A DNA stretch of 32,000 nt from Candidatus Saccharimonadota bacterium (lineage in GTDB: Bacteria > Patescibacteriota > Microgenomatia > UBA1406 > GWC2-37-13): contig CP064967.1 in assembly GCA_016699265.1 (NCBI GenBank), positions 600,001 to 632,000 on the forward strand, in the 5' to 3' direction. Positions 3,855-29,079 of this stretch are shown piece by piece. The position numbers were made by a program, and so were the translations under genes. A model generated the notes under the pieces. That model searched no databases. It was not told the origin of the DNA and saw only the letters and a program-made list of their open reading frames with translations. How positions within the stretch are numbered: the stretch's first letter is position 1; the number at the start of each line of letters is the position of its first letter.

Positions 3855-4947
3855 CTACATTCCTAACGCCCTCTTATATACCGCGACCGTCTCCTTTGCC
3901 ATGGTTTTAAATGACATATTGCCTAACAATATAGACGCGTCTACTTTTGGAGTATCTCTAAGAACTTGCTCAATTGTTTCCTGGATATCAGAAACTGAGT
4001 TCGGATTGAATGCGGTGTAAATGGTCTCCTAAGGTTTCCTTAAAGACCTCGATGTTTGAGGCAATAACAGGAGTATTAAAGTACAACGCCTCCATTGGCG
4101 TTAGTCCGTAACCTTCAGATAATGATGGGTGAACTAATGCATTTGCATGTTTATAGAAAAACACAAGGTCCGACAACGAAGCATTATGATACATAACAAT
4201 TCTGTTGCATCTATCTAAAGACTTAATTAAGTCTCGCATCTTCCCGGAAAAATGGTCTTCCGGACCAACTAATACCAACTGGCAGTCGGACTTAATATTT
4301 GCGTACGCCTCGATCAACTTATCCACATTTTTATGGGGATAAAAGTTGCCTACGTACAACAAGAAAGGTTTTGTAAATTGCTTACCTAACAATCTATTTT
4401 CAGTTGCAGTTATCAACTTAAGATTAAGTCCTTCTGGAGTCACGAATATTTTTTCTTCCGCTGCGCTGTACAGTTTCAAAACCTGTCTTTTTACAAACTC
4501 TGTTGGCGTGATAATCGCTCGGCTATTTTTTATTGACTGCTCGATTACCCGAGTCATAGCAAAGTACTTTGGATAGTACTCTAGACCGGACTTTGTAGAT
4601 GCTTTACCTGTCTTAAACAACACGGGAGTTAAATCATGAATCGTTGAGACGAACGGATCTTTATACAGTAACGGATAGCTAAAGTAAGTAAAGTGCATAA
4701 GATCGAGTTTGTAGCTGATTAGTTGTACCAAAAAACCTGTTTGCTCGGCGATCGTATGCCATCGATAATCTGCTTTTACGATATTATACCGATCAGAATG
4801 AGGCACCTGCGATATATCCTCAGAACGCACAAACACAAACACCTTCCAGTCCTTGGGAAGAAACTGTGGCAGGTGATAGAGAAGATTATAAGTGTACACA
4901 CCTACACCAGTTTGCGTAAGTAGTCGAGCGTCAATTCCTAGTCTCAT
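3855..4947 (-). pseudogene. GT4-family (Glycos_transf_1) glycosyltransferase, reading frame broken once near 4021-4026
   Basis: The 319-aa ORF 3988..4947 ends abnormally (…NIEVFKETLGDHLHRIQSELSF*). The next frame continues with a normal GT4 C-terminus (TIYTAFNPNSVSDIQETIEQVLRDTPKVDASILLGNMSFKTMAKETVAVYKRALGM*) and stops at 3855-3857. The EGYGLTPMEA motif is present. Confidence 0.7.
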
Positions 4948-5019: not shown

Positions 5020-5911
5020 TCATGACTTCGAATTTCGAATTTTAAATTGAAAATTTATTAATGCATGTACCATACGTGTTACTAACTTAGGATATTTAGT
5101 CGAATAATGCTTGTCAAAAAAGATTCTCATCGCTTCATAAAAAAAATTCGAAGTAGCTTTTTTCTTATTTTTGTCGTCATGTTTCATTCCACTTTTTCCT
5201 TTCAGATGGGTGATTGATTGACCAGGAAAAAGATAATCTTGTAACCGGCTTCCTTAATCCTTTTTGCAAGATCAAGATCCTCCCCATACATAAAAAATCC
5301 TCATCAAAGCCACCAACTACATCAAGAATCGATTTTCTTGTGAGAAAAAATGCCCCACTCGGAGAATCTATTTCATGAGTCTTGTTTAGATCTAAGTGAA
5401 TTAGATGATACCCACCAAAGAATCTATTTAGTAATGGTACATTTTTCGTCACTAACTCAAGTTTGGAAAAGTAGGTAAAGGATCTCCATAGTGTTGGGAA
5501 TCCCCTATGAGAAGCCGGATCAAGTGCGCCGTTTTCAAGATTAACTCGTACTGTCAAAACACCGATTTTGGTATCTGAATCCATTATTTGAAGAAGCTCT
5601 TTTAAATTAAGCTCATGGACCATAGTATCAGAGTTCAAAAAAAGGATATACTTACCTCTTGCCTTCTTGAGCCCTATGTTATTTGCCTTTCCAAAGCCGA
5701 CATTTGTATCATTCTTGATTACTGTACAGCCAAGAGGATATAACTTTGTTTTCTTAATCCTATCAACCGAGTCGTCTGTTGAGGAATTGTCCACCACGAT
5801 AACTTCCAAATCAATCGAAGATTTACTCAATGAGCTTGCTATAGAATCTAGACACTGTGTTGTAAGTTCTACTGTATTGTATGAAACAATAATGATGGAG
5901 AGATCGAGCAT
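5020..5911 (-). pseudogene. GT2-family glycosyltransferase, reading frame broken twice (about 5292-5297 and about 5232-5241)
   Basis: The N-terminus is a typical GT2 (LSIIIVSYNTVELTTQCLDSI, VVDNSSTDDS, FLNSDT). The frame is lost at an A6/T6 run. Restoring one base gives [27 protein letters not shown]. Restoring a second base gives PGQSITHLKGKSGMKHDD...RMVHALINFQFKIRNSKS* with the stop at 5020-5022. 892 nt plus 2 equals 298 codons. Confidence 0.7.
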
Positions 5912-11066: not shown

Positions 11067-12197
11067 TTATGAGAAGTAAACAGTGTCGTACACTTCATCA
11101 AGTTTATCCTGAAACTCTTCTTTGGAAAAATTATTTTTGACTAAGAAGTCTGCAAATGCAATAGTTGGTCCCATATTTGTTCCGAAAAGTTCATTAATGT
11201 CTCTCTTCTCACCTCCATGTCCTGGCCTATCTTGAGTTCTGGAACCAAGCCGAGAATAACGTATATTCTTTTCTGCGAATAATGCCATTATGTAAATGTC
11301 GGTATTCTTAAGTTCTAATGTAAGGTATTCATATTCTTTCCAAGATCTCATTCCATCGATCACAACGATATTATTTTTTTTAAGATCCTTCTTTATGCTG
11401 TCTAGATTTAACTTTGCCATTGCTTCCATTCCATGGGTTCTGCGCAATTCTTCACGTACAATCTTATGATATTCCTCTTTCTGTGCATGATATCTTTTTT
11501 GAACCTCATCAGTTACCACTTTACCAAAATGTATAACCGGAACTTTTCGAGACTTAAAGTGAGCAGCTGCTTCAGACTTACCAGACCCTGGTAGACCGAC
11601 GATGGCGATTATCGCCTTTTTGTGCTGTTGCCATGCGCTCAATTTATTCTCAATAAGCTGTTTTCCTAAACTCTTAAGAATTTCTTGATTTACCTCCTCA
11701 ACAGTTTGAGTACCATCTATGTCGGCAAGTTTTCCTTTCTTTCGGTAGTAATCTAAAACTGGTACCGTTAACTTTTTGAATGACTCAATTCTTTTTTTGA
11801 GCGCTTGTATGGTGTTATCTATTCGATCATCATCTTTACGATACGCAAGTCTCCATAGGGCGTCTTTATCGGGAATATCGACATAGATTACCTTATCAAC
11901 GTGATTGATAAATTTCTTTGCCTGAGCAAGTGTTCGAGGAAACCCATCGAGAATATATCCGTTTGCGTATTCTTTACGAGATAGGTAGGAGTTCACGATC
12001 TCAATCGTTTTGTCATCAGGAATAAGAATTCCGGCATTCATCACGGTCTTGATATATCTTCCAAGCTGCGTCTTCTCCTTCGCAATCTTACGGAAGATGT
12101 GACCGGTTGAAAGGTATGGAAGTCCGAGTTGCTTGACTAGTAGATTACCTTGAGTGGATTTTCCAGCACCCTGAATACCCATCAATACTAATTTCAT
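11067..12197 (-). CDS. adk: adenylate kinase fused to a second P-loop nucleotide-kinase-like domain (UPF0200 / dephospho-CoA-kinase-like)
   Basis: A single uninterrupted 376-aa ORF. Residues 1 to about 185 are short-LID Adk (GIQGAGKSTQ, GYILDGFPRT). Residues from about 193 carry a second Walker A (IVGLPGSGKSE) plus VIDGMRSWKEYEY and KRDINELFGTNMGPTIAFADFLVKNN. There is no Met or stop in the linker. Confidence 0.85.
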   Translation of the reverse strand: MKLVLMGIQGAGKSTQGNLLVKQLGLPYLSTGHIFRKIAKEKTQLGRYIKTVMNAGILIPDDKTIEIVNSYLSRKEYANGYILDGFPRTLAQAKKFINHVDKVIYVDIPDKDALWRLAYRKDDDRIDNTIQALKKRIESFKKLTVPVLDYYRKKGKLADIDGTQTVEEVNQEILKSLGKQLIENKLSAWQQHKKAIIAIVGLPGSGKSEAAAHFKSRKVPVIHFGKVVTDEVQKRYHAQKEEYHKIVREELRRTHGMEAMAKLNLDSIKKDLKKNNIVVIDGMRSWKEYEYLTLELKNTDIYIMALFAEKNIRYSRLGSRTQDRPGHGGEKRDINELFGTNMGPTIAFADFLVKNNFSKEEFQDKLDEVYDTVYFS

Positions 12198-12562: not shown

Positions 12563-13831
12563 TTAACGTGCGTATCGATCGTAATTTTTCATGACCATCT
12601 GTGACTCAACCGTCTTGAAGGTTTCCAAAATTACTGACACAACTATTAAAATCCCTGTTCCTCCGATCACCAAACTAGTTATCCCAGTTATTGATGAAAG
12701 GATTGCAGGCAAGATAGCTATTATACCTAAAAATAATGCTCCAACACTAGTGATTTTATAAATTACCCCAGATAGGTAGTTGCTCGTGGCTGATCCGGGT
12801 CTAATTCCTGGAATAAAACCCCCGGCTTTTTGAATTTCTTCTGCAATTTTTTGAGGGTTAAACACAACCAAAGTATAGAAAAATGTAAACCCAACTACTA
12901 AGAAAAAATAAACGAGATTATATACGGCTCCTGCTGGATTAAATAGTTGGGCTAGGCCAAGTGCTGCTGACGCTACCGTTTTGTTACTTACCTGCCCTAG
13001 AAAATTTCCCAAAAGTTGAGGAAGCAACACGAATGAAACAGCAAAGATTATTGGAATAACACCGGCCTGATTAAGCTTTAAAGGTAGGAAGTTAGTTGCA
13101 GACTGGTACATTTTATTGCCTTTTACGCGCTTAGCATAATATACCGGAATTTTTCGTATCGCTTCGTTTACAAATACGACTCCTGCAATAACGAGTAACG
13201 AGAGACTAAGGAAAATAACTAGATTTAAAGCCGTCTCAGGAGTTACGGTACCTAATACTTGTTGGAATATAACCGGTGCACGTCCCACTATACCGGCGAA
13301 AATAAGAAGAGATATGCCCTGCCCTAAACCGTACTCTGTCAGGAGTTCGCCAAACCATACGAGAATAAATGTTCCGGCCACAAGTGTGAAAATGAATGAG
13401 AAAACCACAGGGCTGATTGAAATAATGTTCTGATTTCTTAGTAAAAATAAATACCCACCGCCTGAACAATGGTTAATGGAACAGTAAGCAATCGAGATAT
13501 TGATTTATCTCAAACCTACCGTATTCACCCCTTTCGCAAGCTGTTCGAAACGAGGTACTACCACAGTCAATAACTGAAAATAATCGATGCGTTGATATAA
13601 GGGTTTAGTCCAAAGCCATTACCGAAAAATTAACCAGTGTTCCTCCAGAGAAAATATCAAGAAGAGATAGAAATTGATTTGGCTGAATAGTGCCTTAAGT
13701 TTGATGAGATCGACTCGAAGGAACTGGTAAAGCAAAGACTCTAAAACAAAAAAATGAATAGCGTGAAGTAAGTTTTCTTTTTAGTTCAGGGTCCTTTACA
13801 AGGAGCTTAGTTTATCGGTTATTTGACGCAT
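12563..13831 (-). pseudogene. secY: preprotein translocase SecY; 3' two-thirds intact, 5' third (about 13447-13831) broken by multiple frameshifts
   Basis: The intact 281-aa ORF 12563..13408 is the SecY C-terminal part (GGFIPGIRPG...). Upstream, pieces in shifting frames read MRQITDKLSSL / KDPELKKK / [47 protein letters not shown] / PLTIVQAVGIYF / LLRNQNIISISPVVFS. The first break from the 3' side lies in a T-run at about 13447-13451. Confidence 0.8.
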
Positions 13832-14269
13832 GAGTTTCAACAGTTCCGCCTGCTTTTTCTATTACCGCTTTGCAGATTGAGTAATTGGTAATTTTACTGT
13901 CAGTTTTTGCTGGAGAGTACCCTTGCCAACAATCTTAATAATGCATCCGTATCGCTTTTGGTAATTATTTTTGTCTTCAAGCAACCCAGCAACTGTTACA
14001 ACATCATTATCTCGCAAACTCTCTAACTTTCTACAGCAACTGGGAACACAACCGCTCTGTGGGAGTTGTTTTTACCTTTTCCACGAAGTAAAGGATATTT
14101 TTTGACCAATCGACCCTGACCTCCTCAAAATGAAGTGGCGTATCGACTCTCGCTTTCTGGTGTCTTGTGATTCCTCTGGTAGATTTTGCTCCTTTCCACT
14201 ACCATAACCACGACCCAATCGTTTTGATTTCTTTCTTCCGATGCTGGTTAGATTTGATAGAAATGCCAT
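13812..14269 (-). pseudogene. rplO: 50S ribosomal protein L15, reading frame broken several times
   Basis: The N-terminus MAFLSNLTSIGRKKSKRLGRGYGSGK is L15-like and then drifts out of frame. The C-terminal piece ...IEKAGGTVETHASNNR* is recovered in another frame. Boundaries are approximate. Confidence 0.7.
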
Positions 14270-14328
14270 ATATATTACTTAGTCCCTTTAACTTTCTTGA
14301 CATCCGCAGCCTTGACTGGAGGATTCGC

Positions 14329-14856
14329 TTATGTGGACATAACTTCCTCGGTCTTTTCAACTACTGTTTTTGTTTCTCCTGCCGTTATTCGAGGTTTCAG
14401 TTTTTTCAACGCCTCAATTATTGCATAGGTATTCGCTATTTGATTTCTAGAACGGATTATTTTTCCTGAAGATTCTCTACCCAGCAAGTTTAGTATTGCG
14501 CGCAACGCTTCCCACCTTAAGACCGGTTCCAAGTGGAGCGGGCTTTAGCAATACCCCTTTGCTGCCTTGTATTTGAGAAGTATCATGTGGAATTGAGGAC
14601 TTAACAAAGGAACAACAATAATGTTTTTGCACTGCGTGATAGCCTTTTAATTGCTGCGGAACCTCAGCAGAACTTCCAAGACCAACTCCCACCTTTCCTT
14701 TTTATTACCAATCACAACAAGTGAGGAGAAAGTGACTTTGTTACCTTCCAGTTGTCTTTTTAACCACTCTTCGGATAAGCAGGACTCTCTCCTCAAACTC
14801 TTTATCCTTTGGCCCTCGTATCTCCTATTATTTGGTGTTCTTGTATTATTAAACAT
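14329..14856 (-). pseudogene. rpsE: 30S ribosomal protein S5, reading frame broken several times
   Basis: Fragments across three track ORFs: MFNNTRTPNNRRYEG...GNKVTFSSLVVIGNKK, GVGLGSSAEVPQ...KPAPLGTGL and KIIRSRNQIANTYAIIEALKKLK. Confidence 0.75.
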
Positions 14857-14863
14857 ATTTTTC

Positions 14864-15188
14864 TTAAATTACTACTCCGTTCTCCCTCAAACTTTCTGCA
14901 AATTGTTTCACTCGACCGTGATATAGATATCTACCTCGATCAAACAAAGCTTTCTGCACCTTTAGCCTTTTGAGTTTCTCAGCCAATCTGACTCCAATAG
15001 CCTTTGGGTCTGTTCCTTTAGCTGCTGCGATTGTAACACGCTTCACATCATCTATTGCTTGGCCATACAAAATTTATTAGATCGAAAACGCTTATGCGAG
15101 GTCTTTCCTCAGTGCCTGAAGCTTTGCTCGGACTCTTTTACCTTTCTTTGAATTCTGTTTAATATATATATTAGTTCTTAATTTTCAT
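14864..15188 (-). pseudogene. rplR: 50S ribosomal protein L18, 5' part frameshifted
   Basis: The intact C-terminal 68 aa read YGQAIDDVKRVTIAAAKG...LFDRGRYLYHGRVKQFAESLRENGVVI. The upstream ATG at 15186-15188 gives MKIKN... followed by stops and frame changes. Confidence 0.75.
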
Positions 15189-15204
15189 TTCTTAGTTGTT
15201 AATA

Positions 15205-15746
15205 TTACGCCGCTCCTGCTGCCTTCGCCTTCTTTCCAGGCTTAAGTTTTAGATACCGCCCGCATATCGAATTCCTTTCCTTTGTATGGATCCGGTTTTC
15301 TGTTAACTTAACTAAATATGCTACCTCTCCCGCTAACTGTTTATCGACGCTTGATATAGTGATCAGATTTGTACCTCAACACTAAAGGTAACACCCGGTC
15401 TCGCCTTAAAGACAACTGGATGTGAAACCCAGTTTTTAAAGCTAGATTCTGACCTTCCATCTTAACATTAAATCCAGTTCCAACGATTTCCAACTTTTTT
15501 CCCAAGGTTTTGAACACCTTCAACCGCATTTGCTATCAGACTTCTAAACAACCCGTGTAATGACTTGGTCTTTTATCATCTTTTGTTCGTCCTACTGTGA
15601 GAACACCGTTCTCTTGAATCACTTTAATGGTATTTGGTACCTCAATTTTAAGCTCACCCTTGGTCCTTTTACAAGCACGGAACTACTCTGATATCTACGG
15701 TTACTACTGGTTCTACTTTAATTATTTTTTCTCCAATTTTTGACAT
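15205..15746 (-). pseudogene. rplF: 50S ribosomal protein L6, reading frame broken many times
   Basis: From ATG at 15746: MSKIGEKIIKVEPVVTVDI.. / VKGPKGELKIEVPNTIKVIQENGVLTV / LIANAVEGVQN / ...GKK...EIVGTGFNVKMEGQNLALKTGFH / IRYAGG..LKLKPGKKAKAAGAA*, spread over all three frames. Confidence 0.72.
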
Positions 15747-15770
15747 ATTATTTATAGTGAGTTTATCGAA

Positions 15771-16151
15771 CTACCAAATCTCAAATAATAACTTCCGCCT
15801 AACTTCGACTTTCTTGCCTCAACATTGGTCATCAATCCTCTTGAGGTCGAGATGATCATGTATCCTGTCCCGCTCATAACTGGCTTGATATCGTTTACCG
15901 TTATATACCAACGCCGACCTGGTTTTGATCTAATCGTCACATTGGTAAAGACTGCTTCACCATGCTTGTATCTCAGCACGATATTTATTTCTTTTTACAC
16001 CGACAGTCTCAACACTGTAGTCCTGGATGAATCGAGCGACTTTAATTTTTAAGCACTTGCTCCTTTAGTTTAGAGTGTGGTGAAGAAATTTCTCTCTTTG
16101 GCGAGGTATCCATTTTATTCTGATCACTAAATCAATTATTCCGTTGTTCAT
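15771..16151 (-). pseudogene. rpsH: 30S ribosomal protein S8, reading frame broken several times
   Basis: ATG at 16149-16151. Adding one base at the run at about 16113-16116 gives MNNGIIDLVIRIKNGYLAKEREISSPHSKLKEQVLK. Later pieces read LDFIQDYSVETVG and LRYKHGEAVFTNV...ISTSRGLMTNVEARKSKLGG, and (after one more shift) KLLFEIW* with the stop at 15771-15773. Confidence 0.75.
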
Positions 16152-16154
16152 ATG

Positions 16155-16439
16155 TTAGGTTGCTGAAATCACTTTCTTTGTAACTTTTCCATGGCTTCTG
16201 AATGTTCTGGTCAATGAGAACTCACCCAAACGGTGACCAATCATCGACTCTGAGATTAAAACCTCAATATGTTTACGTCCATTATGAATTGCGATTCTGT
16301 GACCTACAAAATCTGGCGCGATTACAGACTGTCTCGCCCATGTCTTTATCGGAGTTCTCTCTCCTGTATTTTTCTGAGTTGCAATTCTCTTCATTACGTT
16401 CTCGTCGATGTATGGTCCTTTTTTTGATGATCTACTCAT
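16155..16439 (-). CDS. rpsS: 30S ribosomal protein S19, in a non-canonical position
   Basis: 94 aa: MSRSSKKGPYIDENVMKRI...IKTWARQSVIAPDFVGHRIAIHNGRKHIEVLISESMIGHRLGEFSLTRTFRSHG is unmistakably S19. It sits 6 nt after the rpsN stop and 3 nt before the rpsH start. Confidence 0.92.
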   Translation of the reverse strand: MSRSSKKGPYIDENVMKRIATQKNTGERTPIKTWARQSVIAPDFVGHRIAIHNGRKHIEVLISESMIGHRLGEFSLTRTFRSHGKVTKKVISAT

Positions 16440-16445
16440 ATATTT

Positions 16446-16631
16446 TTACCAAGAAACTTTTTTAACTCCTGGAATTTCGCCAGCTAACGCTCTCTGTCTG
16501 AAGCATATTCTACAGAGCCCAAATCGTCTCATATAGCCTCGAGCTCTACCGCACAATGCACATCTGCTCACATGACGAACATCGAACTTCTGCTTATGTA
16601 AAAACTTAACTACTGATGATGTTTTTGCCAT
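16446..16631 (-). CDS. rpsN: 30S ribosomal protein S14, short Zn-binding (type Z) form
   Basis: 61 aa with [22 protein letters not shown] (CxxC...CxxC) and a C-terminal GVKKVSW. Confidence 0.92.
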
Positions 16632-19582: not shown

Positions 19583-20068
19583 TTATTTTTCTGCTTTTGG
19601 TTCTTTGGTTGCATTTTTAACTTTTAACTTTGTACTTTTAACTTCTTTTAGCTCCGTCTTTTTTACTTCAGTCTCCACGGGCTCTGTCTCCGACTTTATA
19701 GACTTTACGGACTTTATTGACTTGTCAGTATTATCTCCTGTGGTTAAAACCAACTTAATATGAGAATATTCATGCCTAAAAGGCTTGGCCATTCCTTTCG
19801 AGCCAGCTCTAAATCTCTTAAGTCGAAGTCCTTCCTCAATTGCGACAGACTTAAATTGTAACAAACCTGAATCAATATTCATAGTGTTCTTAGCATTGGA
19901 AAGGGCTGAACTAATTGCTTTTCTTAAGAAAGTTGCGCCCTTTTTTTGTGTATACATAAGTGTATGAACAGCCTGTACTGGGCTCTGCTTCTTCACGTTA
20001 CTCACTAAAAATCTCAATTTTTTTGGTGAAATCTTAACGTTTTTTATATAGACCTTAAAATCACTCAT
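19583..20068 (-). CDS. rplV: 50S ribosomal protein L22 with a long Lys/Ser/Glu-rich C-terminal tail
   Basis: 161 aa; the core ISPKKLRFLVSNVKKQSPVQAVHTL...RFRAGSKGMAKPFRHEYSHIKLVL is L22; the tail is partly encoded by a 9-nt tandem repeat. Confidence 0.9.
   Translation of the reverse strand: MSDFKVYIKNVKISPKKLRFLVSNVKKQSPVQAVHTLMYTQKKGATFLRKAISSALSNAKNTMNIDSGLLQFKSVAIEEGLRLKRFRAGSKGMAKPFRHEYSHIKLVLTTGDNTDKSIKSVKSIKSETEPVETEVKKTELKEVKSTKLKVKNATKEPKAEK
19692..19727. repeat. four tandem 9-nt units (gactttata/gactttacg/gactttatt/gacttgtca) inside the rplV tail
   Basis: Read directly. On the coding strand it gives the periodic peptide DKSIKSVKSIKSE. The same gactttat motif array occurs in the non-coding adk-rpmG spacer (12263-12300). 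Confidence 0.7.
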
Positions 20069-20074
20069 ATGTGT

Positions 20075-20824
20075 TTATATACTTCTTCTTTTAACAATAT
20101 AACGGTTACTCCACTTAACCTTTGGACGAGTTCTCGTTCCTCTTGCTGACTTACCCCAAGGCGTCTTTGGATGCATACCTTCTCCAGACTTACCTTCTCC
20201 TCCACCATGTGGATGGCTTCTTGGATCTTGAGCAACTCCTCGGACCGTTGGTCTAATACCCATTCTTCTCTTTCTTCCAGCTGTTCCAATGAGCTCATCT
20301 TTATGCTCAATGTTTCCTACCATTCCTACTGTTGCTCTACAGTCCAGCAAAAACAGTCTGATTGAACCGGAAGGTAACTTTATCTGTGCGTAGCTCTCAT
20401 CCTTAGCAACAACGATTGCTGTTCCTCCTGCACCACGCACCATCTTTCCACCCTGTCCAGGTCGAAGCTCGATATTGTGGACTCCGGTACCAATTGGGAT
20501 GTTCCTTAAAGGCGCGGCGTTTCCAGTCATCATTTCTGGATTATCTGATGAAATAACCTTATCTCCAACCTTAAGATCTTTAGGTTGAAGTATGTATCTT
20601 TTTTCACCGTCCGCGTACTCAACAAGACTAATTCTGGAATTTCTATTTGGATCGTACTCTACTGTCAATACAGTACCAACAACATCAAATTTATCTCTCT
20701 TAAAATCAATAATACGATAGTAACGTTTATGTCTACCACCCTGATGACGTACCGAGATCGACCCGGTCGCGTCTCTTCCTGAGTGCTTCTTAAGAATTTC
20801 TATTAGATGTTTCGCTGGTTTCAT
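20075..20824 (-). CDS. rplB: 50S ribosomal protein L2, with a short N-terminus
   Basis: 249 aa; motifs RHQGGRHKRYYRIIDFKR, YDPNRNSRISLV, GQGGKMVRGAGG and HPHGGGEGKS. It starts only 5 nt after the rplW stop, so the usual N-terminal KPTxPGRR segment has no coding room. Confidence 0.92.
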   Translation of the reverse strand: MKPAKHLIEILKKHSGRDATGSISVRHQGGRHKRYYRIIDFKRDKFDVVGTVLTVEYDPNRNSRISLVEYADGEKRYILQPKDLKVGDKVISSDNPEMMTGNAAPLRNIPIGTGVHNIELRPGQGGKMVRGAGGTAIVVAKDESYAQIKLPSGSIRLFLLDCRATVGMVGNIEHKDELIGTAGRKRRMGIRPTVRGVAQDPRSHPHGGGEGKSGEGMHPKTPWGKSARGTRTRPKVKWSNRYIVKRRSI

Positions 20825-21111: not shown

Positions 21112-21869
21112 GTTGTTTTTTTACCCTGAACTTGCTGAACGGGTGGATAGAAATGATCAACTAATGTCTTTATTGTCGACTCGAAAAGTACGATCTTTCT
21201 AGCGCGTAATATTTCGTATGCATTGAGCGACTTTGCCTCAATTGAGGACGCAGACTGAATGTTTCGAGAGGCCCTCATAAATGCCTGAGTTTTTTCTCCC
21301 GGCATAATAAAGAGAACTCCTTTGTCTGCTAAACCTGAATCTTTAAGAAACTTTGCAAAGTTCTTGGTCTTCGGTTCCATTCCAAGAACAGTATCCAGAA
21401 CTCCACTTATCTTTTTCTCCTTGAGAGAGTAAGAAAGTGCGCTTACTAAGGCAAGCTTTTTCTGCTTCTTATTCATTGAAAGAGCGAAGATTCTTGGTTT
21501 TGGTCCAAAGGTTATGCCTCCTCCAACAAAAATAGGAGCCTTCTTCGCTCCATGTCTTGCCCGTCCGGTTCCTTTCTGTCGATAAATTTTTCTTGTTGAT
21601 CCTCTAACCTCACTTCTAGTCTTTGTGGAGACCGTCCCTTGACGTTGATTTGTAAGATAGATGTGCACGTACTGCTGCATCAGTGCGTCATTTACCTTAC
21701 CACCAAACAACTCTTTAGGAAGTTGCATCGATCCCACCTCTTTTCCCAACTTATCGATGAGGCCAAGAGTCAGACTAGATGATGCTGGCTTTGGCGCAGT
21801 TGTTTTTTTAGCCACTGCGGTTTTTGCTGAATTGGTTGTCGCTGTTTTTGTCTTTTCTATAGTTGCCAT
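21108..21869 (-). CDS. rplD: 50S ribosomal protein L4 with an Ala/Thr/Lys-rich N-terminal extension
   Basis: 253 aa; RSEVRGSTRKIYRQKGTGRARHGAKKAPIFVGGGITFGPKPR. Confidence 0.93.
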   Translation of the reverse strand: MATIEKTKTATTNSAKTAVAKKTTAPKPASSSLTLGLIDKLGKEVGSMQLPKELFGGKVNDALMQQYVHIYLTNQRQGTVSTKTRSEVRGSTRKIYRQKGTGRARHGAKKAPIFVGGGITFGPKPRIFALSMNKKQKKLALVSALSYSLKEKKISGVLDTVLGMEPKTKNFAKFLKDSGLADKGVLFIMPGEKTQAFMRASRNIQSASSIEAKSLNAYEILRARKIVLFESTIKTLVDHFYPPVQQVQGKKTT

Positions 21870-21871
21870 AG

Positions 21872-22528
21872 TTATGAGTTTGAAACAATACTAATTAATG
21901 CAGTTCTCGCTCCGGGAATCAGACCTTTCACAATTATTTGGTCATCGGAAACTCCCATCACCATTAATCCCTTTACACTGACTCGGTCATTTCCCATTCT
22001 CCCAGCCATTCTTTTTCCTTTATCAACTCGTCCAGGAGTAGTGGTCTGTCCGATTGATCCAGGAGCTCTCCATCTATCTGACTGACCATGAGTCTTCGGA
22101 CCTCCGGCAAAACCATGCCTTTTAACTACGCCCTGAAATCCTTTACCTTTTGAGATTCCGGTAACAGTCACAAGCTCTCCTTCTTTAAAGATTGCGTTTG
22201 GCTTGATCTGATCTCCTACAACTATTTTGAATTCTCCGAGAGTTAAGGTTTTTTTACCATTTTCATCAGCGATTGAAGCGTCTTTCAATTTGTTCAGCTT
22301 GATTTCTCTAAAAAAACGAAGCGGGGTCTCTATCCCCGCCTTTTTAAGTTCTCCGACCTGTGGTTTTTTGACGTTTTTACCACGACCGAAGCCTAGCTTA
22401 ATTGAGGTATCTGTCAGACCAATGCAGTAGCATGAAGCGGACTTAATGGTTGTTGTTGGAACACGAACACCATCAGAGGTGAATTGTTGAGATTGGTGAG
22501 CTTTCTCGCCAAGAATATATCCTGACAT
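21872..22528 (-). CDS. rplC: 50S ribosomal protein L3
   Basis: 218 aa; VTGISKGKGFQGVVKRHGFAGGPKTHGQSDRWRAPGSIG...PGRVDKGKRMAGRMG. Confidence 0.93.
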   Translation of the reverse strand: MSGYILGEKAHQSQQFTSDGVRVPTTTIKSASCYCIGLTDTSIKLGFGRGKNVKKPQVGELKKAGIETPLRFFREIKLNKLKDASIADENGKKTLTLGEFKIVVGDQIKPNAIFKEGELVTVTGISKGKGFQGVVKRHGFAGGPKTHGQSDRWRAPGSIGQTTTPGRVDKGKRMAGRMGNDRVSVKGLMVMGVSDDQIIVKGLIPGARTALISIVSNS

Positions 22529-22570: not shown

Positions 22571-22640
22571 CATCCCGTGGAACCAATCTGTGGAGTATTA
22601 CTGAATACCAGTCCTGACACTACGAATAGTCATTAACGTA

Positions 22641-22669
22641 ATTATATAGCACGCTCGGATGTAATTCAA
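22641..22669 (-). promoter_or_regulatory. sigma70-like promoter between rpsJ and rplC (TTGAAT-17 nt-TATAAT)
   Basis: The minus strand reads TTGAAT (22664-22669), a 17-nt spacer, then TATAAT (22641-22646). It begins 31 nt after the rpsJ stop. Confidence 0.5.
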
Positions 22670-22699
22670 CTCTAAGCGATCAAGAATGAGTATACATCT

Positions 22700-23008
22700 T
22701 CACCTCAACTCACCTCTTCCTACGCCGGCTGGAAGTTCAAGATGCATGAGAGAATCAATGGTTTGATTAGTGGGACCTTCGATATCAAGAATTCGCTTAT
22801 GAGTCTGCATCCCAAAGTGTTCACGAGCATCCTTATCAATAAATGGCGACTTATTGACCACGAATACCTCCTTCTTCGTTGGAAGAGGTATCGGACCAAT
22901 AATCGAGGCACCCGTCTTGATAGCGGTGTCCACTATCTTCTGACAGGTGTCATCGATTAATCGATGATCATAAGACTTTAGTTTGATACGAATACGTCCT
23001 TTGGGCAT
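22700..23008 (-). CDS. rpsJ: 30S ribosomal protein S10
   Basis: 102 aa; [60 protein letters not shown]. Confidence 0.94.
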
Positions 23009-23086: not shown

Positions 23087-24274
23087 TTACTTGGTGACTT
23101 TAGTTACGACTCCAGCGCCGACTGTGTGGCCACCTTCGCGAATAGCGAACTTAAGACCATCTTCCATAGCGACTGGGTAGATCAGCTTTGCTGAGATCTT
23201 GATGCTGTCTCCAGGCATAACCATCTCTACTCCTTCTGGTAGGGTGACTTCTCCCGTTACATCAGTTGTTCTGATGTAGAACTGAGGTCGATAACCCTTA
23301 AAGAATGGGCTGTGTCGTCCACCTTCTTCTTTTGTAAGAACGTAGATCTCAGCCTCAAACTCAGTGTGAGGAGTAACTGTTCCTGGTTTTGCGATGACCT
23401 GCCCTCTTTGGACGTCGGTCTTCTCAATACCTCTAAGAAGTAAGCCTGTGTTGTCACCTGCTCGTGCCTCATCAAGAGACTTTCTGAACATCTCGATTCC
23501 GGTTACAACAGTCTTCTTTCCACTCTTGGAAAGTCCGACAATCTCCACCTCTTCATTGACCTTCAAAACACCTCTCTCTACACGTCCGGTTACGACTGTT
23601 CCGCGACCCATGATGGTAAAGACGTCTTCGACAGGCATTAAGAATGGCTTATCGATGTCTCGTACTGGATCAGGAACATAGTCATCCACTGCCTGCATAA
23701 GGTCTTCAATGGCCTTGGTTGCATCAGCATCTCCTTCAAGAGCTTTAACAGATGATCCCTTAATAACAGGTACTTCATCACCTGGATATCCGTACTTCTT
23801 CAAAAGGTCTCGGACTTCCATCTCGACGAGTTCGAGAATTTCTTTATCCTGAACCATGTCGCACTTATTTAAGTAAACGACAATTGCAGGAACGTTTACC
23901 TGTTTTGCAAGAAGAATATGCTCTCGTGTCTGAGGCATTGGACCGTCAGGAGCAGATACAACTAAAATTGCACCGTCCATCTGAGCGGCACCTGTGATCA
24001 TGTTCTTAATATAATCAGCATGACCTGGAGCATCTATGTGTGCATAGTGACGCTTTAAGGTCTCATACTCAGAGTGATGAATGTTAATTGTAACTCCACG
24101 AGCTTTTTCCTCTGGAGCTTTATCAATCTCTTCATACTTCATCGCCTTTGCAAGACCTTTTTTCGAAAGGACGAAGTGAATTGCTGATGTGGTTGTGGTC
24201 TTACCATGATCAACGTGACCAATAGTACCAATGTTCAAATGAGGTTTGTTTCTTTGAAAAACACCTTCTGCCAT
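23087..24274 (-). CDS. tuf: translation elongation factor Tu
   Basis: 395 aa; G1 [10 protein letters not shown]3 DAPGH, G4 NKCD, plus conserved domains II and III. Confidence 0.97.
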
Positions 24275-24449: not shown

Positions 24450-27423
24450 ATGCTTAACGCCGATCAGAAAAAAGCGGTTCAAAACATTAAGGGACCACTA
24501 CTTATAATCGCCGGTGCAGGCACGGGGAAAACTACAACTATAATAGAGAAGATAGCCTTTCTAATTGAGAAGAAGAAAGTAAAACCGGAAAATATTCTTG
24601 GACTAACCTTCACCGAGAAAGCCTCAAACGAAATGGAGGAACGTATCGATCAACGACTCCCCTTTGGTTACTTTCAGCTAAATATATCTACGTTTCACTC
24701 ATTTTGCGATCAGGTACTTCGAAGTGAAAGTTCTCACATCGGAATTTCGCCTCTATACAGACTACTTTCAGAAGCAGAGACCGTTATGTTTCTGCGAGAG
24801 AATCTTTTTTTATTCAAACTTAAGTACTTTCGTCCTTTAGGAAATCCCAATAAATTTCTCGATGCTCTTCTTCAACATTTCTCGAGACTCCGAGATGAGG
24901 ATATTTCGCCAGCTCAGTACCTAGCATGGGCAAAGTCGCCCAAAGGGCGATCCCCCTCTGGGGGAAAGAATAAGGAAAAAATGACAAAAGAAGAGCGTGA
25001 AAAAAATCTTGAGCTTGCAACTGCCTTTGACACTTTTCAGACAATCAAACAAAGAGAAAATGTCTTCGACTATGCCGATCTTATTTACTATACGCTAGAG
25101 CTTTTTCGAAAGCGGCCCCACGTACTCAAACGCTTTCAAAAACAGTATGAACATATTTTGGTAGACGAGTTCCAGGATACAAATATCGCACAGTATTCGC
25201 TAATTAAACTTCTCGCAACGCCAAACAAGAAACCTAACTTAACGGTGGTCGGCGACGACTCACAGGCTATCTATAAATTTCGTGGCGCCTCTGTTTCGAA
25301 CATTCTTGCATTCATGAAGGACTATAAAGGCGCAAAGCAGATAACACTGAGAAATAATTACGCTCAACTCAGACTCATTCTTGATAGAGCTTATAAGCTC
25401 ATCAAACATAACGACCTGAGACACTCTCGAGGCAAAGCTTCGAATCTCTAAAGAATTGATTGCGGTATGAAAAGTATCAATGAAATACGGAATACGTTAT
25501 ACGATATTACGCACCTTGGTCTCCGATCGTGCGAGGATGAGGCTGACCATAGGTTACAAAGAGATCAAAGCTCTGAATAAAAATATAAGTACTGGATATT
25601 GGCAATTCTTGTTCAGCAAATAATCACGCTGAGGTAAAGTTACACGAGACTGTCTCAGAGAAAGGTGCATTCCATTATCAATTTTTGGGTCCACGGGAGC
25701 TTGTTCAAACAACCAGAGGTCAAGGGACCTTACTGCCTATCTCAAATGTTCTGGCAAATTTAGACGACTCAGCTCTCCTTTATAGAGTGCTTCCGAGATG
25801 GAGTTGTTCTGACATAAATAGTAAGGACATCTCTACTTCTCCTAACCTTTGGCCGACGCTCGTCCCTTTACTTTGTTTGAGGCAATCGAGATAATTGTAA
25901 CCCTGAATCAAGCGAAATAATAACTAACATAAAGTATCTGCCAAAGCATTAGATCGACACAAAAACAATCCATATATATATACATTATTCGCAGATAGCA
26001 CCTGAATCGGTAAAAGGATACTGCGGCAATTCTTACTACTTTTAGGAGACTCTGGATATCTTCAAAATCGCCAATACAAACTGAAAAAGATGAACGAGTC
26101 GCACTCAACATCTCTAAGTTATTTCGATAAGCTGAAAAGTTACGAAATCACTCATGAAGACGCAAACTATATATGCAGTGGACTTTATCAAAATGAGTAT
26201 GGAGCTGGGAGAATCAAATCGCCGTTGATCTAGATAAGGAACTTTACGATGTGCTGTCAAAATTCCTTCACCATTCATTCTGCAAAGGGTCTTGAGTTTC
26301 CAGTCGTGTTCCTAATTAATCTAACGCAGAGACCGTTTTCAACTCGTGAAAGAAAAGAGACAATTCCTGTTCCTATGGGAGCTGATAAAGGAAACAAGCT
26401 TCCTATCTGGAAGCGACTTCCATCTGCAGGGGAAGAGAGAAGGCTTTTCTAGTGTGGGAATTGACAAGAGCCATTGCGAGAGACTTTACTTCACGGCAGC
26501 TCAAGCAACATAACGGTGAGGGAGAAGCGGCTACGCAAAGTTTTCACTCATTTATCTGGTGAGTCTCGTATGAAAACAATCCTATGCAAAATTTTCGAGA
26601 CCCAAAAGGATGAAAAATCAACAAGTATTTTTGATATAAATAAGTCGCCTAGCAAGGGATCAGCTCCTTCTGGGGCGAAAAATTAGACCAACAAACCATG
26701 CTCTATTCAACGAGATTGACACTTATCAAATGTGTCCGCTCAAACATAAATATTCAATATGTATTAAAATTCAATAATCTGCTGAGCTAAGCGTCTCTTA
26801 AACCTTGGTCTACATTACATTACAATTTTATACAGAATATATGAACAACAAAACATTAAAAAAGGGAATGTCTTCTAGAACTCTTGATGAGTCTTGATTC
26901 CGTGGGCTTTATATCTAAGTATTAGCGAACGCAATTCAAAAGAAGCGGGAAAGAAAATGCTATTAAATTACTACAAACTTTTCTACACTAAAATGCTTAA
27001 TATTCTTGATCTGGAGAAAGCATTCAAGATTAAGGTTGGCCCAGGTGACGATATCTTCATTAATTGAAAAATAGATCGACTCTGACAGCACATCTAAAAT
27101 GGTATTGAGATAGTAGATTATGCAAGACTGGCAAGACACATAAAGAAAAACTAAAGAACAGTCTACAACTTTCGATATATTTAGGACAGCAGCGACAGAC
27201 AAAGGGCACAGAAACAAAAACCAAGCGATGCCTTTAACCTTCTACTACCTTCAGACAACAAAAAATTACCGTTGACCAAACCGGAAGAAACTGTACAAAA
27301 AGCCAAGGAAAATACTTGAGGCAGATGATACATGGAAGCTGAGAACTTGAAGCCTAAAAAAGGTCCTGCTTGTAACTTCGCCAGTTCAAGATGATCCGCG
27401 CTTCCGGTAGTATCAAGACTTGA
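24450..27423 (+). pseudogene. UvrD/PcrA-family (SF1) helicase fused to a C-terminal PD-(D/E)XK Cas4/AddB-type nuclease; intact for the first 305 or so codons, then densely frameshifted
   Basis: The intact N-terminus has Walker A AGAGTGKTT, motif II DEFQDT and motif III VVGDDSQAIYKFRGA. After about 25365 the family motifs are found only in shifting frames: TLEAKLRISKELIAV, SLFEAIE, TIHSAKGLEFPVVFLINL, EERRLF, (Q)MCPLK.KY, DDIFINGKIDRLD....IEIVDYKTGKT and a terminal CNF..QFKMI. The end coordinate is approximate. Confidence 0.75.
24936..24965. repeat. double hairpin TCGCCC-aaa-GGGCGA / TCCCCC-tct-GGGGGA embedded in frame in the helicase (encodes SPKGRSPSGG)
   Basis: Read directly. Its first 17 nt are identical to the reverse complement of the rplQ-tail element at 6865-6881. 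Confidence 0.7.
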
Positions 27424-27588
27424 GCCGATCAGCAAGCTTCCGGCAGTGATTGGAGCTGAGTCAGATTCCAGGGTAGCAATTGGATGAAATTCAACGACAA
27501 GAACTATTCGAGATTGTCTGAAGAATTGCTCAAGAACATCGCTCAAAATAAGACGAGCGATTCATTAAGTTTTAAACAAAGATTAGGA

Positions 27589-27594
27589 TATAAT
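27589..27594 (+). promoter_or_regulatory. TATAAT box 6 nt upstream of an in-frame ATG (27601) of the GT2 synthase gene
   Basis: TATAAT at 27589-27594, gap atcttc, ATG at 27601. This is the same spacing seen at the helicase and glyA starts. Confidence 0.35.
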
Positions 27595-27600
27595 ATCTTC

Positions 27601-29079
27601 ATGTCTGATCGGATTGCTCAGTCGCGCTTTTTCAACCGCTTATTCCATGTCATCGTTCCTATTTTGGCTTGGCTTCTCATTACCTTACCGGTTTGGCTCT
27701 CACCCTTTCACCCAGCAATTGTTGCCTATTTTATTCTTTCTTTCAACATCTACTTTTTTTATAAATCTGCGGCTACGGTCTACTATGCTGTGCTTTCCTA
27801 CAAAACCATAGGATTCCATCAAAAGATCTCATATAGTTCTAAACTTAAGAAAATCGAAAAAGCAAAAAACATTCATCATTTTATCGTTATCCCGAACTAC
27901 AAGGAGCAACTACACAAACTCGATGAGTCGCTGACATTACTAGCAAAGATGGACTATCCTCACAGGAAGCCTTCCATTGTTCTTGCATTTGAGTCACGTG
28001 AAGCGGAAGCTAAATCTAAGGCTCAAGCACTTATCGCAAAGCATAAAAAATCTTTCTCGAGCATACTCCAGACTTATCATGAATTACTCCCGGGAGAAGC
28101 AGCCGGAAAAGCAAGTAATCAATCATATTCGTGCAGACAGGTTGAGAAGCACTGTAATGACGAAGGAATTTCACTCCGAGACACCATAATTACTATTGCA
28201 GACGCTGACAGTATGTTTCCAAAAAATTACTTTTCGTATCTAACGTACGAGTTTCTTAAAGATACCGAGAACCTCTACCACTTCTACTGGGCTCCAGTAC
28301 TTCTTTACAACAACTTTTGGCAACTTCCATTCTTTATGCGAATGCAGGCAACTTTGTCATCGATCTTTCGACTTGCATTTTTATCTCAAGGAAAAAAACT
28401 TATTCAGATCTCTACCTACTCAACGAGTCTCTGGATGTTAAAAGAACTTGATTACTGGGATACTGACATCATTCCTGAAGACTGGCACATTTACTTCCAG
28501 GCTTTTTTTAAGTTTGGAGAACGCGTGAAAACTCTACCGCTCTTCACGATCATTAATGCTGATGCTGTTTATTCGGGAGGAGTTTTTAAAACCTTGGTGA
28601 ATAGATATGAACAGGAAAAAAGATGGGCATGGGGAGTGAGTGATATTGGGTATGCTCTCACAAACAGTTTTAAAGATGTTTCGATCCCAACCATGACAAA
28701 GGTCAGAAAAGTACTATACCTTGTCGAAACCCATCTACTATGGCCCACCTCATTTTTTATTCTGACAGTAAGCGCGCTCATTCCTCCTCTGATTAACCCC
28801 GTATTCAAGCGAACGGTTCTTGGATTTTTACTGCCTCAGTTTTCAAGCTTTGTACTCACTCTCTCAACCTCATTCCTATTGGTCTATACCTACCTAGACA
28901 TCAAGTTGAGAAAAAAATTGAATCAACACACATCGGCATCATCACTACCGTTTATGATTATTCAGTGGTATCTACTACCAATTGTTTCATTTGTGCTTTC
29001 TTCACTTCCCGCCTTGGATGCGCATACTCGAATGATATTTGGAAAGAAACTCGACTATAAAGTGACAGAAAAGGTTTAA
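27601..29079 (+). CDS. membrane-embedded processive family-2 glycosyltransferase (cellulose/chitin/hyaluronan-synthase-like)
   Basis: The track ORF 27484..29079 is 531 aa. It has two N-terminal and about four C-terminal TM helices and a cytoplasmic GT-A core with VIPNYKE, IADADS and the QxxRW-type motif YEQEKRWAWG. I prefer the start at Met-40 (27601), just before the first TM helix and preceded by TATAAT-N6. A start at 27484 remains possible. Confidence 0.75.
   Translation: MSDRIAQSRFFNRLFHVIVPILAWLLITLPVWLSPFHPAIVAYFILSFNIYFFYKSAATVYYAVLSYKTIGFHQKISYSSKLKKIEKAKNIHHFIVIPNYKEQLHKLDESLTLLAKMDYPHRKPSIVLAFESREAEAKSKAQALIAKHKKSFSSILQTYHELLPGEAAGKASNQSYSCRQVEKHCNDEGISLRDTIITIADADSMFPKNYFSYLTYEFLKDTENLYHFYWAPVLLYNNFWQLPFFMRMQATLSSIFRLAFLSQGKKLIQISTYSTSLWMLKELDYWDTDIIPEDWHIYFQAFFKFGERVKTLPLFTIINADAVYSGGVFKTLVNRYEQEKRWAWGVSDIGYALTNSFKDVSIPTMTKVRKVLYLVETHLLWPTSFFILTVSALIPPLINPVFKRTVLGFLLPQFSSFVLTLSTSFLLVYTYLDIKLRKKLNQHTSASSLPFMIIQWYLLPIVSFVLSSLPALDAHTRMIFGKKLDYKVTEKV

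Follow-up and report, generated by a model that had tools for sequence, protein, structure and literature searches.

How does it come about that six consecutive genes of a ribosomal protein cluster have no surviving reading frame, while the genes directly beside them are intact? The question is raised by a stretch of 32,000 nucleotides (nt) from a Candidatus Saccharimonadota bacterium, positions 600,001 to 632,000 on the forward strand of contig CP064967.1 (assembly GCA_016699265.1). This whole stretch is called the window here, and all coordinates are window positions. On its minus strand the longest open reading frame (ORF) between 13408 and 16151 comprises 75 amino acids (aa), although the region carries rpsH, rplF, rplR, rpsE, rplO and the 5' part of secY. 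Judged from the comparisons described below, the damaged stretch, referred to as block 1, is almost certainly a technical artefact of sequencing or assembly, that is, a patch of error-prone, homopolymer-compressing data within an accurate contig. An earlier note, made from the sequence alone, had likewise read it as low-quality consensus and not as biology, naming an unpolished long-read patch, a coverage gap or a strain-mixture collapse as examples, and this reading is now strongly supported by indels private to the window, intact genes in conspecific genomes, the ratio of indels to substitutions and the dependence on homopolymer length.

Six genes without a reading frame

For the localization of the damage the intact conspecific contig L081 served as source of the reference proteins and of the base-level alignment. 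A tblastn search with the L081 proteins S8, L6, L18, S5, L15 and SecY recovered all six where they were expected, each match being scattered over several frames of the window. The positions and the lesions relative to L081 are as follows.

13404-16116, minus strand: error block 1, 58 deletions, 9 insertions and 14 substitutions, net loss of 58 nt
15771-16151, minus strand: rpsH (S8), 390 nt and 129 aa in the reference, 381 nt in the window, 7 frame-shifting deletions
15205-15746, minus strand: rplF (L6), 552 nt and 183 aa in the reference, 10 frame-shifting deletions
14864-15165, minus strand: rplR (L18), 306 nt and 101 aa in the reference, 8 frame-shifting indels
14275-14856, minus strand: rpsE (S5), 594 nt and 197 aa in the reference, 16 frame-shifting indels
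13812-14269, minus strand: rplO (L15), 462 nt and 153 aa in the reference, 8 frame-shifting indels
12563-13831, minus strand: secY, 1287 nt and 428 aa in the reference, 15 frame-shifting indels in codons 1-147 (about 13404-13831)

The ORF listing, the tblastn search and the alignment agree that no frame survives in any of these genes, as had been claimed. Almost all of the block 1 indels (65 of 67) shift the frame. They occur at a density of one per 41 nt with a median spacing of 30 nt, and the longest frame-preserving stretch measures 203 nt; the initial estimate of one indel per 60-100 nt was therefore too low. The impression that few substitutions accompany many indels was correct (14 against 67). 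Among the individual lesions named at the outset, the one in the T-run of secY was found again: the reference has T6, one T is missing, and the alignment puts the loss at 13442. The lesion at the 3' end of the S8 gene was likewise located, as a G lost at 15793. At 16113-16116, where a single missing base had been assumed, two bases are lost (A6 to A4), and two further deletions follow 20-24 nt on.

The immediate flanks carry intact ORFs, namely the 281-aa C-terminal part of SecY and L33 on one side and S19, S14, L5 and the further genes up to tuf on the other. The remainder of secY (12563-13403) matches L081 without any indel or substitution, and no frame-shifting indel was detected in S19, S14, L5, the rest of SecY or L33. 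The earlier description of both flanks as clean thus holds for these immediate neighbors, but not beyond them, since a further block of errors occupies 25361-27400 and single indels are present at 4023, 5227 and 5292.

Intact genes in the conspecific population

The window was compared with about 20 distinct conspecific contigs, which come from metagenomes of JGI and ENA, from Logan assemblies and from metagenome-assembled genomes (MAGs) of NCBI, the latter being GCA_049642925.1, GCA_044224595.1 (a 707-kb contig) and GCA_049290975.1. A multiple alignment of the window with nine references (L081-L089) was computed with MAFFT, seven further contigs spanning block 1 were aligned by pairwise BLAST, and L090 and L096-L105 were used for the second block. 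S8, L6, L18, S5, L15 and SecY are present in identical gene order in all inspected contigs. In every one of them S8 (129 aa), L6 (183 aa), S5 (197 or 198 aa), L15 (153 aa) and SecY (428 aa) are full-length, and L18 has 101 aa throughout, except in the short-read contig L082, where the gene call begins at a later start. According to these assemblies, the organism, a Patescibacterium of the Microgenomates group, almost certainly has normal, intact rpsH-rplF-rplR-rpsE-rplO-secY genes.

The nine aligned references were unanimous against the window at 68 indel columns. Pairwise comparison with the seven further contigs yielded 58 deletions and 9 insertions each (59 and 9 for L100). All 67 indels of block 1 are therefore private to the window, none being common to any of the approximately 20 assemblies, and they stand against about 10 private substitutions. 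A window-specific 49-mer which spans three of the deletions had no match in the metagenome contig collection; its intact version was matched. Natural variation within the population has the opposite composition. Pairs of references differ almost only by substitutions, the ratios of substitutions to indels being, for example, 137:2, 57:1 (a 3-nt in-frame indel) and 33:0, i.e., with about one indel per 40 substitutions or fewer, as against 67 indels to 14 substitutions in block 1. Within the limits of block 1 the references differ from each other by about 30 columns with single-nucleotide polymorphisms (SNPs). They also differ there by an intergenic indel of 23 nt and by a single codon in frame, whereas indels that shift the frame are absent among them.

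These data bear directly on genuine pseudogenization, by which the stretch would belong to a decaying lineage, to relic DNA or to a redundant transferred copy, with intact genes elsewhere in the genome. Every frame is truly destroyed in the deposited sequence, and a window of 32 kb leaves room for a second copy outside of it. However, the block is situated in its native operon. Alignment of its flanks to L081 over 16,067 nt revealed 12 substitutions but not a single indel, and the identity of these flanks with conspecific genomes whose genes are intact reaches at least 99.9%. Moreover, 83% of the differences in the block are indels, the reverse of the divergence seen in the population. A pseudogene is expected to show neutral substitutions alongside its indels and lesions which it shares with relatives; here substitutions are few and every lesion is private. 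Pseudogene-rich reductive genomes are those of Mycobacterium leprae and of recently host-restricted symbionts. Block 1 resembles them in that recognizable genes contain several frameshifts. In such genomes, however, these are accompanied by substitutions and larger deletions, the lesions are common to related strains and the core genes of translation and secretion are spared, none of which applies here. Taken together with the homopolymer pattern and the damage to other genes presented below, we consider pseudogenization extremely improbable.

Deletions depend on homopolymer length

A tabulation of the indels against homopolymer length, suggested in the earlier note, revealed a deletion rate that climbs steeply with the length of the run. 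Of the 58 deletions in block 1, 54 remove one kind of base. The share of runs that lost a base amounts to 1.1% for single bases, 2.4% for runs of 2 nt and 3.4% for runs of 3 nt, and rises to 30% at 4 nt, 43% at 5 nt and 77% at 6 nt or more. Runs of at least 4 nt account for 10% of the bases but for 26 of the 54 homopolymeric deletions (binomial p = 1e-12). In the 16 kb of flanking sequence none of the runs of at least 6 nt is contracted, which likewise speaks against a decaying gene copy. A further 24 of the 54 deletions fall into runs of only 1-2 nt.

Deleted A residues outnumber deleted T residues by 31 to 10. This excess arises because the coding strand is rich in A-runs; of the runs of at least 4 nt, 19 of 45 A-runs and 7 of 11 T-runs were hit, and a strand asymmetry was accordingly dismissed as its source. 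Separately, the deletions of isolated bases (run length 1) affected a purine on the coding strand in 13 of 14 cases, mostly within mixed A/G tracts. This strand-specific purine bias may reflect read support from a single strand or the context in which the basecaller operated.

As A-runs of 4-7 nt on the coding strand contain many of the lesions, a restoration of the frames by transcriptional slippage or by programmed ribosomal frameshifting has to be considered. Slippage restores some poly-A frameshifts in reduced endosymbiont genomes, and Tamas et al. reportedly described such a rescue in endosymbionts in 2008; the location of frameshifts at A-runs is common to those cases and to block 1. Nevertheless, slippage as well as the frameshifting of prfB and dnaX relies on one conserved site per gene, which relatives would be expected to keep. 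Block 1 contains 65 frame shifts in six genes, 7-16 private ones per gene, many of them outside of runs, and the 24 deletions in the shortest runs are beyond the reach of slippage. Since, in addition, no conserved slippery site was present and the conspecific genomes encode the same proteins unshifted, the probability of recoding is practically negligible. A different possibility is that the indels genuinely existed in the sampled DNA and that the latter came, for example, from a non-viable, recently dead or hypermutated variant (relic DNA) within an otherwise common Microgenomates population, with slippage-type mutations clustered in tracts of 2-3 kb; to this we attach the same very small probability as to pseudogenization.

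A second error block and isolated indels

Further window-specific damage was located outside the ribosomal protein genes.

25361-27400, plus strand: error block 2, 62 insertions, 57 deletions and about 90 substitutions relative to all conspecific references
4023: isolated 1-base insertion found only in the window, a G next to a G
5227 and 5292: isolated 1-base deletions (A) found only in the window, both in A-runs

Block 2 sits within a gene on the plus strand which starts at 24450 and encodes a UvrD/PD-(D/E)XK helicase of 986 aa. With an error of about 10%, comparable to that of a single raw long read, it destroys the gene. The helicase is intact in the other assemblies except L103, where it was called as two pieces (718 and 232 aa). 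The additional G at 4023 leaves a GT4 glycosyltransferase with 319 aa instead of the 363 aa of the references. The deletions at 5227 and 5292 split a GT2 glycosyltransferase, whose reference length is 297 aa, into a product of 244 aa and a fragment. A non-essential helicase 9 kb away and two glycosyltransferases are thus damaged in the same manner as the six ribosomal protein and secretion genes; the damage therefore tracks the position in the assembly and not the function of the gene, contrary to what pseudogenization would imply.

Strain mosaic of the window

The window is a mosaic of two haplotypes of the population. Most of it corresponds to the type of L081 and L096, and parts correspond to the type of JGI 3300038404 (contig L104), namely the S10-L3 spacer and the segment 27478-27739, with 2 substitutions each. 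The haplotype switch at about 27478 adjoins the right edge of block 2. References of the L096 type cannot be aligned at 27400-27582 and differ by 26 substitutions, mostly in third codon positions, at 27582-27684. Positions 26648 and 27685 mark the ends of several short-read contigs obtained from other samples. The mosaic at 27400-27739 stems either from true recombination or from a chimeric assembly.

An alternative is that the indels arose from a consensus collapsed over a mixture of strains, or from a chimeric join of co-occurring strains, and not from a long-read patch. The two haplotypes, the end of block 2 exactly at the switch and the contig ends nearby are in its favor. A collapse of strains which differ by SNPs would, however, produce mixed substitutions rather than deletions depending on homopolymer length, and the references provide about 30 SNP columns and no frame-shifting indel in block 1 from which the lesions could have been derived. 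Nor is the SNP density raised there. We regard this explanation as very unlikely, if slightly less so than pseudogenization. Strain heterogeneity is, on the other hand, a possible reason for a patched gap at block 2 without being the source of the indels.

In neither block does the density of SNPs among the references rise; elevated values occur solely at about 21500-22000 and 27000-27500. The idea that the blocks are hypervariable regions of the population was rejected on these grounds.

Probable origin of the damaged stretches

Under the artefact interpretation, block 1 most plausibly represents a long-read consensus, inferred to be nanopore-like, that was thinly covered or left unpolished. 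Most of the contig would be accurate or polished sequence and the bad stretches would consist of homopolymer-compressing data, block 2 being essentially a raw read. In the latter case a gap in the accurate assembly, caused by co-occurring strains, may have been bridged by a long read, which fits the haplotype switch at the edge of block 2 and the contig ends at 26648 and 27685.

Watson and Warr are said to have drawn attention in 2019 to homopolymer indels in long-read consensus sequences that break gene calls. Block 1 shares with nanopore-type consensus errors the single-base, deletion-biased indels, a rate rising with homopolymer length, few substitutions, short ORFs that remain recognizable across frames and the fact that a conspecific reference corrects them. 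That homopolymer indels persist as residual errors in nanopore consensus sequences and fragment gene calls has been documented (Sereika et al., 2022; PMC9262707), and tools for their reference-based correction exist (Kastor; PMC12007338). Unlike in a typical consensus of this type, the errors of the window are concentrated in two sharp blocks (2.7 and 2.0 kb) and three single sites, with a remainder that is essentially error-free. Such uneven and sharply bounded errors suggest a local failure of polishing or a local patch.

Two points weigh against the artefact interpretation. With a SNP density that is not raised in either block, and no haplotype switch found at block 1, strain heterogeneity offers no obvious reason why block 1 should have been left uncorrected. 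Furthermore, the error profiles differ, block 1 showing about 3% deletion-biased errors and block 2 about 10% balanced ones, so that two different states of coverage or polishing have to be assumed.

Gene content of the window and position of rpsS

The minus strand of the window carries a str/S10/spc/alpha ribosomal protein cluster of the Patescibacteria type, as deduced from the ORF listing and the homologous loci. Its order is tuf, S10, L3, L4, L23, L2, L22, S3, L16, L29, S17, L14, L24, L5, S14 and S19, followed by S8, L6, L18, S5, L15, SecY, L33, a double adenylate-kinase-like gene, map and infA, and finally by S13, S11, S4, rpoA, L17, L13 and S9. Three intact members are relevant for the following comparisons.

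23087-24274, minus strand: tuf, intact
16446-16631, minus strand: rpsN (S14), intact
16155-16439, minus strand: rpsS (S19), intact and 100% identical to the references

The EF-Tu of the window is 100% identical to a protein which NCBI names "Microgenomates group bacterium", and Roizmanbacteria are the next relatives. Proteins identical to S19, EF-Tu and S9 of the window are recorded in 239, 56 and 278 blocks of the contig collection, respectively. Rfam and tRNA scans of the window gave no matches, so that the ORF-poor regions are not explained by an RNA gene.

The rpsS gene is displaced. Instead of separating rplB and rplV, it has come to lie between rpsN and rpsH (16155-16439 as compared to 19583-20824 in the window). 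In all conspecific contigs S19 is flanked by S14 and S8, and L22 comes directly after L2. Both features recur in two more distant Patescibacteria MAGs (L001 and L002; 64-76% protein identity). The canonical arrangement, in which S19 directly follows L2, is retained in Jeotgalicoccus (Firmicutes), in an Anaerolineaceae MAG (Chloroflexi) and in a WPS-2 MAG; the order L2-S19-L22 was found in the first two, and the WPS-2 MAG gave no L22 hit. A literature search for a relocation of rpsS in Microgenomates found no description. By the gene orders compared, the displacement is a real trait of the lineage and unconnected with the artefact.

It had been proposed that the edge of block 1 coincides exactly with the displaced rpsS. 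This does not hold, as the last indel, at 16116, lies 35 nt inside rpsH; at a mean spacing of 41 nt the nearness of rpsS to the edge is coincidental. A connection between the two is also contradicted by the order S14-S19-S8, which is common to all intact assemblies and to L001 and L002.

Two other loci deserve mention. The adenylate kinase gene (11067-12197, minus strand) encodes 376 aa with two regions of the ADK/AAA_17 type, about twice the usual length, and this double-length form is kept in all conspecific contigs. The S10-L3 spacer (22620-22722) is polymorphic between strains, the matching sites being 2398-3760 in L083 and 6066-7428 in L104. In the JGI 3300038404 haplotype it contains an insertion of 1.45 kb with two ORFs (349 and 89 aa) that gave no Pfam hit; the window has the downstream flank of this haplotype but not the insertion. 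The 349-aa ORF was considered as a repeated mobile-element gene and discarded, since the two 349-aa ORFs on the contig are unrelated and lack a Pfam hit. Next to the spacer, the S10 gene of the window contains two extra stretches of 4 nt which alter the C-terminus, for which all references have PAGVEVEVKM. Exact-protein look-ups returned no record of this S10 variant, which may be another artefact of joining or of sequencing error. Look-ups with the SecY fragment and three other ORFs of the window gave no match either, and a scan of genome contigs yielded only relatives whose L5 identity was 65% or less.

Consequences for annotation

The frameshifts of block 1 bring no new biology, and their value is that of a data-quality warning only. 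With at least one further bad block and scattered indels the record needs to be re-polished or replaced by an intact conspecific assembly. Automated annotation of the present version would call S8, L6, L18, S5, L15 and SecY missing or pseudogenized. This would lower completeness estimates, remove markers from ribosomal protein phylogenies and possibly lead to false claims of gene loss for a reduced genome of the candidate phyla radiation (CPR).

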